DNA from: Bacteroidales bacterium
GTDB taxonomy: Bacteria > Bacteroidota > Bacteroidia > Bacteroidales > G963667975
NCBI GenBank assembly: GCA_963667975.1
Contig: OY764079.1
Coordinates: 1,182,760 to 1,246,759 of the forward strand
DNA length: 64,000 nt
Reading direction: 5' to 3'
Shown: positions 3,828 through 4,698 of the stretch, in pieces
How positions within the stretch are numbered: the stretch's first letter is position 1
How the letters are laid out: the number at the start of each line of letters is the position of its first letter
Translations under genes and position numbers: made by a program
The notes under the pieces: generated by a model
What the model was told of the DNA's origin: nothing
Database searches by the model: none
The model's input: the letters and a program-made list of their open reading frames with translations, nothing else

Positions 3828-3941
3828 GCTAACACGCGGTCATAAAACATTGAGGTTTAAGTGGTATACCAAGCGCATCGCTCGCTGGCAAGGTTCTTAT
3901 CGGTTGATAGGTTCGCAGCTCCGAATTCCCCAACGTTTCAT
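3828..3941 (+). repeat. attC-like site (left of the intron insertion)
   Basis: GCTAACACGCGG box at 3828 lies 10 nt after the stop codon, and CCCCAACGTTTCAT ends at 3941. Arm complementarity is weaker than in the other sites. Confidence 0.4.
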
Positions 3942-3944
3942 ATT

Positions 3945-4617
3945 GTGTCAAGAAGCGGGGTAACCTGCATGCTGTAATTGAGAAGAAGGAAACCAGTTGT
4001 AAGGTTGAACCATCGATGTCGTCGTACAGGCGAAGGCATCAAACCACCTAAAGGTGCTGTGGTAAAGAGTCATGGTGCTGAGCGTTTAGGAAACGATAAG
4101 CCACGAGCTTATCAGGTATGAATATAGGAGATGAACGTAAGTGAACCCTTGATGACGGATCGAGAAGTTGCCACACCCAGTCAAAAGCTACGGAGTATGT
4201 GACGGAGTGATAAACTTAGCGGATACCTGTTTACTGGCTAAGTGGCTGGCGTTCTTCAGAGGGCAGGAACTATATTTGGGCTTGGTTACGGAACTTGAGA
4301 ACCTGCATGTTGATGATAGGCTGTTATATAAGCGATCGGACAAGAAAGCCGACAGTCAAAGGGAAATGCACAATAGGTTCACCCTAGAGGCAAAATACCG
4401 AAGCATCATGTAGGGGCAGACTAACTCGTAGTAGTGATGATACAACTGTAATGGGAGAGGAGCGAAGGGGTTAGCTAGTTACAAATGACAAATTCGCCAA
4501 CTTTAACGAGGATGAGCTTATATTTGTTGCAGTAGCTAGAAGAGCCGTGTGATGGGAGACTATCAAGCACGGTTCTGTGAGAGGCTTGGGGTGAAATTCC
4601 CCTTGCCTACTCGGTCA
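3945..4617 (+). mobile_element. ORF-less group II intron (5' boundary uncertain)
   Basis: Domain V at 4542-4575 reads GAGCCGTGTGATGG-GAGA-CTATCAAGCACGGTTC, with an AGC triad, a 2-nt bulge and a GNRA loop. Domain VI is a hairpin at 4579-4612 with a bulged A at 4609. A short hairpin at about 4471-4540 stands where an RT ORF would be. The candidate 5' end is GTGTC at 3945. The element is flanked by AACGTT boxes at 3931-3941 and 4621-4631. Confidence 0.7.
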
Positions 4618-4698
4618 GTTAAACGTTAGCGTTTATTGGAAAATAATACTCCTATAAGTCGTTTGTTAATAGTCTAAGATTCACATTATTAAAATGAC

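Follow-up and report, generated by a model that had tools for sequence, protein, structure and literature searches.

The 64,000-nucleotide (nt) stretch of Bacteroidales DNA analysed here (assembly GCA_963667975.1, contig OY764079.1, positions 1,182,760 to 1,246,759; "the window") begins with an array of gene cassettes, and one of the attC sites of this array is split by a predicted group II intron that carries no open reading frame (ORF). The array extends from position 1 to about 10300 and consists of single + strand ORFs whose products are typical of cassettes: radical SAM, two DUF4760, FRG, WapI-like immunity, and Fic proteins. Between the ORFs are imperfect inverted repeats of approximately 125-135 nt, beginning ..(G/A)CTAAC or ..ATAAC and ending GTTAGC, GTTATA, or GTCAGAC. 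Besides the split site, attC-type sites are found between single + strand ORFs at 2800-2920, 5813-5945, 7884-8010, and 8693-8830; all attC calls come from an analysis of boxes and stems rather than from a dedicated attC model. All these sites, the split one included, run from R'' to R' on the + strand; the cassette ORFs and the intron are on this strand too, so that the intron is in the sense orientation. Its surroundings are as follows (IBS, intron-binding site; a slash in sequences below marks the insertion point):

3829..3834, + strand: attC R'' box (GCTAAC), complementary at 6 of 6 positions to the R' box at 4625-4630
3841..3855, + strand: attC L'' arm (CATAAAACATTGAGG), paired with L' when the DNA of the joined exons is folded
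3928..3942, + strand: attC L' arm, forming the end of the 5' exon and holding IBS2 and IBS1
3943..4615, + strand: group II intron without an ORF, 673 nt, 5'-UUGUGUCAAGAA ... CUACUCGGU-3', recognised by Rfam matches, alignment, and a covarying fold
4616..4631, + strand: 3' exon, with CAG (the last three bases of the L' stem), the spacer TTAAAC, and R' GTTAGCG at 4625-4631
5813..5945, + strand: intact attC, an empty site of the target type, ..CTTACTGGCCATA / CCGCCAAAC-GTTAGCC; not part of the intron

An initial annotation, made from the sequence alone, had proposed an ORF-less group II intron at this position, and two covariance models agree. In a scan of the whole window at gathering thresholds, Rfam RF01999 (group-II-D1D4-2) matches the domain I (D1) region at 4000-4117 with 102 bits (gathering score 36, E 8e-20), and RF00029 (Intron_gpII) matches domains V and VI (DV and DVI) at 4540-4615 with 63.4 bits (gathering score 40, E 4e-10), both on the + strand; the only other match is a single tRNA at 14402-14476. 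A permissive scan of 3600-4800 added nothing of substance to these two. The element is also set apart by composition, as had been noted: its G+C content is 46.5%, vs 31-34% in the flanking cassettes.

Relatives were collected by a DV-pattern scan of public genomes and viral contigs and by a D1 18-mer scan of metagenomes, giving at least 200 loci; counts of relatives given here (with loci designated L018 to L253) are samples of the matches listed, not totals. The 673 nt align end to end with ORF-less relatives. A full-length alignment of 11 complete ORF-less introns, including the window copy and drawn from Bacteroidota, Acidobacteriota, and Alphaproteobacteria, was folded with RNAalifold; the consensus structure has 147 pairs in 26 helices, from D1 to D6. 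In the window copy the domains fall as follows:

4000..4117, + strand: D1 sub-structure (RF01999), matched at the same relative position in an endonuclease-less intron of Sinorhizobium meliloti
4299..4417, + strand: domain II, with a window-specific insertion of approximately 40 nt; the gamma base that follows is A4418
4421..4474, + strand: domain III, whose basal helix forms 7 of 7 pairs in all 11 sequences, 6 of them with compensatory changes
4475..4539, + strand: domain IV (DIV) stub, 65 nt, a relic of the start of an intron-encoded protein (IEP) gene
4542..4575, + strand: domain V, a hairpin of 34 nt that carries the AGC triad and, on its 3' side, a 2-nt bulge, and is capped by a GAGA loop
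4579..4612, + strand: domain VI, with the branch-point A bulged at 4609

The fold is well supported by covariation. Standard pairs occupy 93.2% of the paired cells in the proposed structure, vs 71.2% with shuffled partners and 40-44% with slid partners, and 105 pairs are changed on both sides, vs 66 (shuffled) and 27-48 (slid). Domains I-III can thus be folded upstream of DV, and the earlier description of this region as structured and non-coding holds: the 81-amino-acid (aa) ORF at 4168-4413, already regarded as unsupported, runs across D1 and D2 helices. The domain V hairpin had been described from its triad, bulge, and GNRA loop, all of which are present, and from an 8-bp lower helix, which in fact has nine pairs including a G-U. 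The domain VI hairpin with its bulged A4609 is borne out by both the RF00029 match and the fold; the relatives share the spacing of 6 nt between this predicted branch point and the 3' splice site.

The state of the fold bears on a first alternative, namely that the element is a dead fossil, an immobile and non-splicing remnant carried along in the cassette array. The window copy forms 137 of the 147 family pairs, within the range of the other introns (126-145, with one outlier at 100), and columns that are invariant across the 11 introns are by definition kept in it. Compared to its closest relative among the matches listed (L149, 83% identical), 24 pairs are altered, of which 19 remain paired, 10 by changes on both sides; most differences therefore preserve structure. 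The window-specific insertion in domain II is a point in favour of the fossil. By these measures the window copy is a structurally intact six-domain ribozyme.

The ends of the intron are unusual. It begins UUGUG and ends GU, departing from the consensus GUGYG ... AY, and this too might be expected of a remnant. The same start, UUGUGUC, is however found in L018, L029, L141, L149, L162, L166, L180, L186, L209, and L235, while most relatives among the matches listed begin GUGUGCC or GUGUGUC. Wherever the contig includes the 3' end of a U1 intron (the window copy, L018, L029, L149, and L162), the penultimate base is G, and it is A in 41 of the 41 G1 introns of the attC subclade among the matches listed; wider relatives deviate, L080 and L122 combining G1 with a penultimate G and L069 having a penultimate C. 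In group II introns the first nucleotide interacts with the penultimate one. The U1/penultimate-G combination looks like a natural covariation of this contact, and since at least four other relatives have both, as does the published UHB.I2 discussed below, they are better read as a variant than as damage.

The 5' end is placed at 3943 because this puts the first exon-binding site (EBS1, below) in register with an exon ending at 3942, and because the same start is seen in L018 and L029, in which pairing between EBS1 and the exon is possible only if the exon ends before the UU. A 5' splice site between 3944 and 3945, giving a GUGUC start, was rejected on the EBS1 register. At the other end, relatives read ..CUACUCGAY, finishing six bases past the branch A, and the window copy reads ..CUACUCGGU with its last base at 4615. 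This position is fixed by the gamma-gamma' pair, in which the last intron base covaries with the J2/3 base (A4418) in 11 of 11 aligned introns; two other candidate 3' ends, one three nt later and one at the R' GTT, were rejected on the same evidence. Bases beyond +6 after the branch A vary in sequence and length among relatives and resemble attC spacers.

Three sites of exon recognition can be located within D1:

4165..4171, + strand: EBS2 (AAGUUGC), in the internal loop (4163-4176) of the D1 d-stem
4196..4202, + strand: EBS1 (UAUGUGA), in the loop (4193-4202) of the hairpin 4187-4208, of whose stem 5 of 6 pairs form in the window
4257, + strand: EBS3-homologous position (C), in a column that covaries with the first 3'-exon base in wider relatives

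Their partners in the window, IBS1 (UUUCAUA, 3936-3942) and the IBS2 core (CAAC, 3931-3934), are both within the attC L' arm. Across the family, the loop homologous to EBS1 pairs with the last 6-7 exon bases (-1 to -7; e.g., UAAGGCA with UGCCUUA, UAACGCA with UGCGUUA, UACACG with CGUGUA, UAAAUG with CAUUUA), and the EBS2 loop covaries with exon positions -8 to -14 (GUUGC with GCAAC, GUGC with GCAC, GGGCG with CGCCC, UUGGC with GCCAA). At the variable EBS1 positions true partners score 2.86 of 4, vs 1.82 of 4 when permuted; for EBS2, a best 5-mer score of at least 4.5 is reached by 36% of true partners, vs 11.5% of permuted ones. The window pairing between EBS1 and IBS1 consists of four Watson-Crick pairs, a U.U mismatch, a G.U pair, and an A-U, scoring 5.5 of 7, in a family that ranges from 4 to 7 (mode 6) with one outlier at 2. 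For EBS2 and IBS2 there are just the four pairs of GUUG with CAAC. Both pairings are weaker than in most relatives, as a fossil would predict, and the EBS1 score is nevertheless inside the family range.

Among the wider relatives, 9 of 11 have a pair between the EBS3-homologous column and the base that opens the 3' exon. In the attC subclade the base is an invariant C facing any of the four nucleotides (first 3'-exon base G in 14, C in 13, T in 7, and A in 5), and the subclade seems, from these counts, to have given up the EBS3-IBS3 pair. Since the base is always C there, the C/C mismatch in the window is a property of the lineage rather than a sign of decay.

That the element interrupts an attC site, as had been proposed with coordinates correct to within a few bases, is evident when the intron is removed in silico. 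The joined exons read ..GTTTCATA / CAGTTAAAC.., and when their bottom strand is folded, 3928-3942 and 3841-3855 form a 14-bp L stem, leaving the R boxes GCTAAC and GTTAGC available. The insertion point lies 3 bp into the L' stem from its base, and 9 nt separate it from the R' GTT. The intact attC downstream gives a picture of the unoccupied state: the GCTAAC-ACGC with which the split site starts is found there as well, at 5816, and the spacer following the intron resembles that at 5928-5945 (CCGCCAAAC-GTTAGCC).

The same location recurs throughout the lineage. At least 100 unique junctions of relatives from the metagenome scan are nearly all at the same place in attC sites of approximately 130 nt, and the 5' exons of 99 relatives have the consensus ..TCCCGCAAC-T-nnn-CATA directly before the intron. 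In L221 other introns occupy an exon identical to that of the window, TCCCCAACGTTTCATA, and L189 has a near-identical one. On the 3' side, where the usual spacing is 7-10 nt, GTT[AG] starts 6-13 nt past the intron in 34 of 50 exons, vs 6% of random positions. A complement of the last 14 exon bases, corresponding to L''/L', is present approximately 100-105 nt upstream in most sites (score of at least 11 in 36 of 89, vs 47 of 1780 controls), and 46 of 55 sites, vs 23% of controls, have an AAC box ahead of L'' at a distance of no more than 14 nt. Hosts of related copies include, besides the bacterium of the window, Subsaximicrobium (L110) and Maribacter (L033). As judged by its junctions, this is a lineage that homes into attC L' arms using covarying EBS1 and EBS2.

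No protein is encoded within the element. Of the ORFs of at least 25 aa, 17 overlap 3800-4700, including the two flanking cassette genes (the upstream cassette spans 3168-3818); inside the intron none exceeds 81 aa. A tblastn search with the IEPs of four relatives found no reverse transcriptase (RT) anywhere in the 64 kb, in keeping with the earlier view that a short DIV leaves no room for an RT/maturase. The origin of this state can be read from the DIV stub, ..CCAACUUUAACGAGGAUGAGCUUAUAUUUGUUGCAGUAG, which retains a Shine-Dalgarno (SD) sequence (GAGG, 4508-4511), an ATG (4512-4514), and two or three recognisable codons, in a seven-codon remnant of the lost IEP gene that ends at a TAG (4533-4535). 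In ORF-carrying relatives the DIV reads ..CAACUYRnAAGAGGAUGAAUUUAUGGAAUGAG.., encoding MNLWNE (GAGGATGAATTTATGGAATGAG), and the window stub aligns with the SD sequence and gene start of the ORF-carrying L157 and L160. These alignments indicate that the window intron is derived from an ORF-carrying intron by a DIV deletion of approximately 1.25 kb that spared the SD sequence, start codon, and hairpin.

The deletion is not peculiar to this copy. A DIV of 68-72 nt with GAGGATGAGC and a covarying closing stem is found in at least 24 ORF-less copies at different attC sites, a count that takes in the window, Subsaximicrobium L110, many metagenome contigs, and L162 (whose available stretch starts upstream of DIV); the 5'-truncated Maribacter L033 has the same stub by reading and was left out of it. 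Two further deletion forms have independent origins; the DIV measures 90-92 nt in one and 121-122 nt in the other. Complete copies among the matches listed number 30 without and 21 with an ORF, a ratio biased by short contigs, which favour detection of complete ORF-less copies.

The full-length ORF-carrying members came from the metagenome scan. Two candidates from the genome scan were set aside: L084 is truncated at its 5' end, and L128 lacks an intact ORF and is preceded by no recognisable 5' part of an intron. The proteins of the relatives (L157, L160, L084, and others) are 416-421 aa long and, over their full length, 47-48% identical to a 419-aa multi-copy protein of the S. meliloti plasmid pSymA. 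A Pfam search of the one protein scanned, that of L084, found RVT_1 and GIIM and no endonuclease domain.

These results suggest a specific mode of life, to which a probability of roughly three in four may be given: the element would be a structurally intact but non-autonomous, ORF-less member of an IIB-like lineage that retrohomes into the top strand of attC sites, being spliced and mobilised by a relative's protein in trans. The intron would be co-transcribed with the cassette array. An RT/maturase supplied by an ORF-carrying relative, either from another place in the genome or from the community, may then bind the DIV stub and assist splicing at branch A4609, which would restore a continuous attC in the RNA. 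Reverse splicing would take the intron into new top-strand attC L' arms read by EBS2 and EBS1, with priming of complementary DNA synthesis depending on single-stranded DNA at the replication fork, as in RmInt1, because the relatives' proteins lack an endonuclease domain. The top strand of the array may be the lagging-strand template, with which its positive GC skew is in agreement, but weakly, since all array genes are on the + strand. The L' arm is now 673 nt from R', so the occupied attC probably cannot fold, and the cassette at 3168-3818 would be locked to the one downstream.

The closest precedent for mobility of this kind is in Thermosynechococcus elongatus, in which ORF-less TeI3 introns sharing one deletion have been shown experimentally to be mobilised in trans by "driver" proteins (Mohr, Ghanem and Lambowitz 2010, PMC2882425). 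One deletion at many sites, with EBS/IBS pairing and fold both kept, is the pattern seen here as well, and in both cases the copies share break-points and keep remnants of the ORF ends. The TeI3 introns differ in belonging to another intron family, whose IEP has an endonuclease domain, and in having spread within a single genome with no tie to attC, whereas the lineage described here is spread over many organisms and metagenomes. An ORF-carrying copy elsewhere in the Bacteroidales genome, with a DIV start like GAGGATGA, would support trans-mobilisation.

Several observations count against this interpretation, and most of them would suit the fossil described above. No RT was found within the window. 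The ends are UUGUG...GU rather than GUGYG...AY. The EBS1-IBS1 and EBS2-IBS2 pairings are both in the lower half of the family, and this copy may have been inserted at a poorly matched site, or have drifted after insertion. The EBS3 position is unpaired (C facing C), a feature of the whole subclade. Finally, the class D label used below comes from pairwise identity and an Rfam motif, not from a phylogeny. With the fold retained and the odd ends recurring in relatives, the fossil is nevertheless considered unlikely. The initial annotation had offered an RT supplied in trans or a decaying remnant as the two choices: the need for a protein in trans stands, while "decaying remnant" now appears less likely than "non-autonomous but functional".

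A different alternative has the ribozyme independent of any protein, or domesticated: self-splicing and static, or kept by the host, whether as a lock on cassettes or as a DNA cutter resembling the HYER RNAs, which are class IIC introns that lack an ORF and hydrolyse DNA (PMC11754743). HYER RNAs resemble the window intron in being compact natural ORF-less group II ribozymes, and they establish that such introns can hydrolyse DNA; they belong to class IIC and have a short recognition sequence, while the window intron is IIB-like, recognises approximately 13 nt of exon through EBS1 and EBS2, and is not proposed here to have nuclease activity. The excess of ORF-less over ORF-carrying copies among the matches listed, the conserved fold, and the disruption of attC folding that insertion must cause are all compatible with a host-kept element. 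Covariation of EBS and IBS at many sites, however, is a signature of retrohoming rather than of a fixed host function, the retained DIV hairpin with its SD sequence and ATG is what would be expected if a maturase must still bind, and no evidence of host benefit was found. This alternative seems very improbable.

The attC location itself raises the question of class. Introns of the IIC-attC type (e.g., S.ma.I2 and E.c.I7) likewise have integron attC sites as their natural homing sites and separate the parts of the attC on insertion, and their proteins, like that of L084, lack an endonuclease domain (PMC3001079). The earlier annotation had accordingly linked the window intron to this group, as an IIC-attC intron that had lost its ORF, and the closest solved structures to the L084 protein are indeed IIC enzymes; the group II matches listed there, however, are only of IIC, LtrA, and TeI4h type, so the list cannot tell class IIC from classes D, E, and F. 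The link does not survive closer comparison. IIC-attC introns enter the bottom strand of attC, antisense to the cassettes (PMC3001079), whereas the window intron is in sense orientation in the top strand; IIC ribozymes are approximately 400 nt long and lack EBS2 (PMC3753933), whereas this one has 673 nt even without an ORF, and a covarying EBS2. IIC-attC introns use the attC hairpin as an upstream stem-loop, the window intron reads the L' arm by base pairing; the former are reported from Proteobacteria, the latter's lineage is in Bacteroidota and many environmental contigs. The RF01999 D1 motif and the protein similarity point instead to the rhizobial endonuclease-less IIB-like introns. Class IIC-attC was rejected on orientation and EBS2, and an IIC-attC origin is hardly credible. 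A top-strand IIC case from Enterobacter cloacae is cited in PMC7923331.

Classes IIE and IIF are distinguished by a 5-nt DV loop and an alpha' at the tip of the D1d3 stem-loop (PMC3753933). The DV loop in the window is the 4-nt GAGA, which argues against either class. From its length (approximately 670 nt) and its possession of both EBS1 and EBS2, the ribozyme is classed as IIB-like. The S. meliloti endonuclease-less intron, which starts GUGUGCCACGAA, shares with the window lineage the RF01999 D1 motif, and its protein of about 419 aa is an RT-X protein without an endonuclease; from copy number and protein length we infer that it is of the RmInt1 type (bacterial class D, IIB-like). The window lineage may thus provisionally be called class D-related, on pairwise identity and the shared Rfam motif. 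RmInt1 inserts into single-stranded DNA of the lagging-strand template (PMC8914252); it differs from the window intron in homing into an insertion sequence and in having its ORF, while the latter is in attC and ORF-less. The rhizobial copy used for comparison (L252, S. meliloti pSymA CP140947, 143119-146148) is itself inside the YADD codons of another RT gene.

Before 2021 the group II introns reported from integrons were of class IIC only (PMC7923331). Sonbol and Siam (2021) then described one full group IIB1 intron, UHB.I2, from a soda-lake integron contig, together with two fragments (PMC7923331). UHB.I2 is like the window intron in its cassette-sense orientation, its position adjoining an attC, the failure to find an EBS3 pairing, and its ends (5'-UUGCG...GU-3' vs 5'-UUGUG...GU-3' in the window), and its protein, like the relative's protein scanned here, has no endonuclease domain (PMC7923331). 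It differs in having an ORF, in being described as "just downstream of" attC with no conserved flanking exons, and in a protein assigned to class CL1 (PMC7923331). Membership of UHB.I2 in the same lineage is a lead, from a comparison of descriptions rather than sequences. No attC-specific IIB-like lineage, nor ORF-less derivatives of one, was found in the searchable literature.

A broader proposal, held with less assurance than the trans-mobilisation reading though still on the favourable side of even, is that the window copy belongs to a second, independent attC-homing group II lineage: IIB-like, probably class D-related, and entering the top strand at a fixed L' point of a family of attC sites of approximately 130 nt. 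Its commonest form would be an ORF-less ribozyme, comparable to a miniature inverted-repeat transposable element, that has spread between the arrays of different bacteria; it seemingly has given up EBS3-IBS3 and often has U1 with a penultimate G. Apart from UHB.I2, such a lineage is apparently undescribed in the literature searched. The window element itself is a new member of a large and apparently almost undescribed group.

The presence of group II introns in integrons has been regarded as a speciality of class IIC, which exploits the recombinogenic bottom-strand hairpin; the lineage considered here would be a different solution to the same niche, in which base pairing lets an IIB-like intron read approximately 13 nt of the L' arm of attC. 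Its entry into the sense strand means that splicing could remove it from the cassette transcript. Many copies lack a protein gene and presumably ride on the enzyme of a relative; if so, non-autonomous retroelements have a habitat in attC arrays. Since an attC is split by every insertion, cassettes at occupied sites should stay frozen or fused for as long as the intron is there. ORF-less copies would also explain some of the long "non-coding" gaps of cassette arrays, and are unannotated in public records, the Tenacibaculum plasmids described below being an example. As compact natural ORF-less ribozymes with long recognition sequences they may be of interest as programmable DNA-targeting RNAs, and the fixed EBS3 position and the U1/penultimate-G covariation offer testable points for intron structural biology.

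Some relatives are arranged in other ways. In L197 (2130-3420), L203, and L181 introns stand head to tail in tandem, the second starting right after the CTACTCGAY of the first with no exon between them. In L018 (2720-2775) and L029 (- strand, approximately 5806-5850) the place of the 5' exon is taken by the DV/DVI of a further group II intron, so that the introns are nested or resemble a twintron. An ORF-less relative without annotation is present on complete plasmids of Tenacibaculum finnmarkense (L253, CP116296, 106672-107220) and on CP116298; the L253 copy, with 69% identity over 85% of the intron, is between genes for a PD-(D/E)XK nuclease and a tyrosine recombinase, and is apparently outside any attC array.

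Within the cassette array, no integrase gene was found among the window proteins scanned, so the array may continue upstream or be integrase-less; a T9SS (type IX secretion system) sorting domain was found among these proteins and, like the low G+C content and the nearest relatives, indicates Bacteroidota. The attC at 7892-8001 has a perfect 23-bp inverted repeat, unusually perfect compared to the other attC sites of the array. A 129-nt repeat is present in two copies (2913-3041 and 8815-8943) that are 95% identical and have terminal inverted repeats of approximately 20 nt (GTCAGACTGTCTAAAAAC ... GTTTTTAGACAnACTGTC); both directly follow an attC with R' GTCAGAC, and ..CGTCAGACTG.. is likewise present in the 3' exons of L138, L198, and L233, three relatives from metagenomes. 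The repeat may be a recurrent ORF-less cassette or an attC-tied miniature element. Another 545 nt between cassettes (6653-7196) contain no + strand ORF, and have G+C-rich segments, no Rfam match, and no obvious attC at their start. Outside the array, at 18726-22025, adjacent genes for an N6_N4_Mtase DNA methylase and an AIPR-domain protein make up a pair reminiscent of a defence island, in a low-G+C region.

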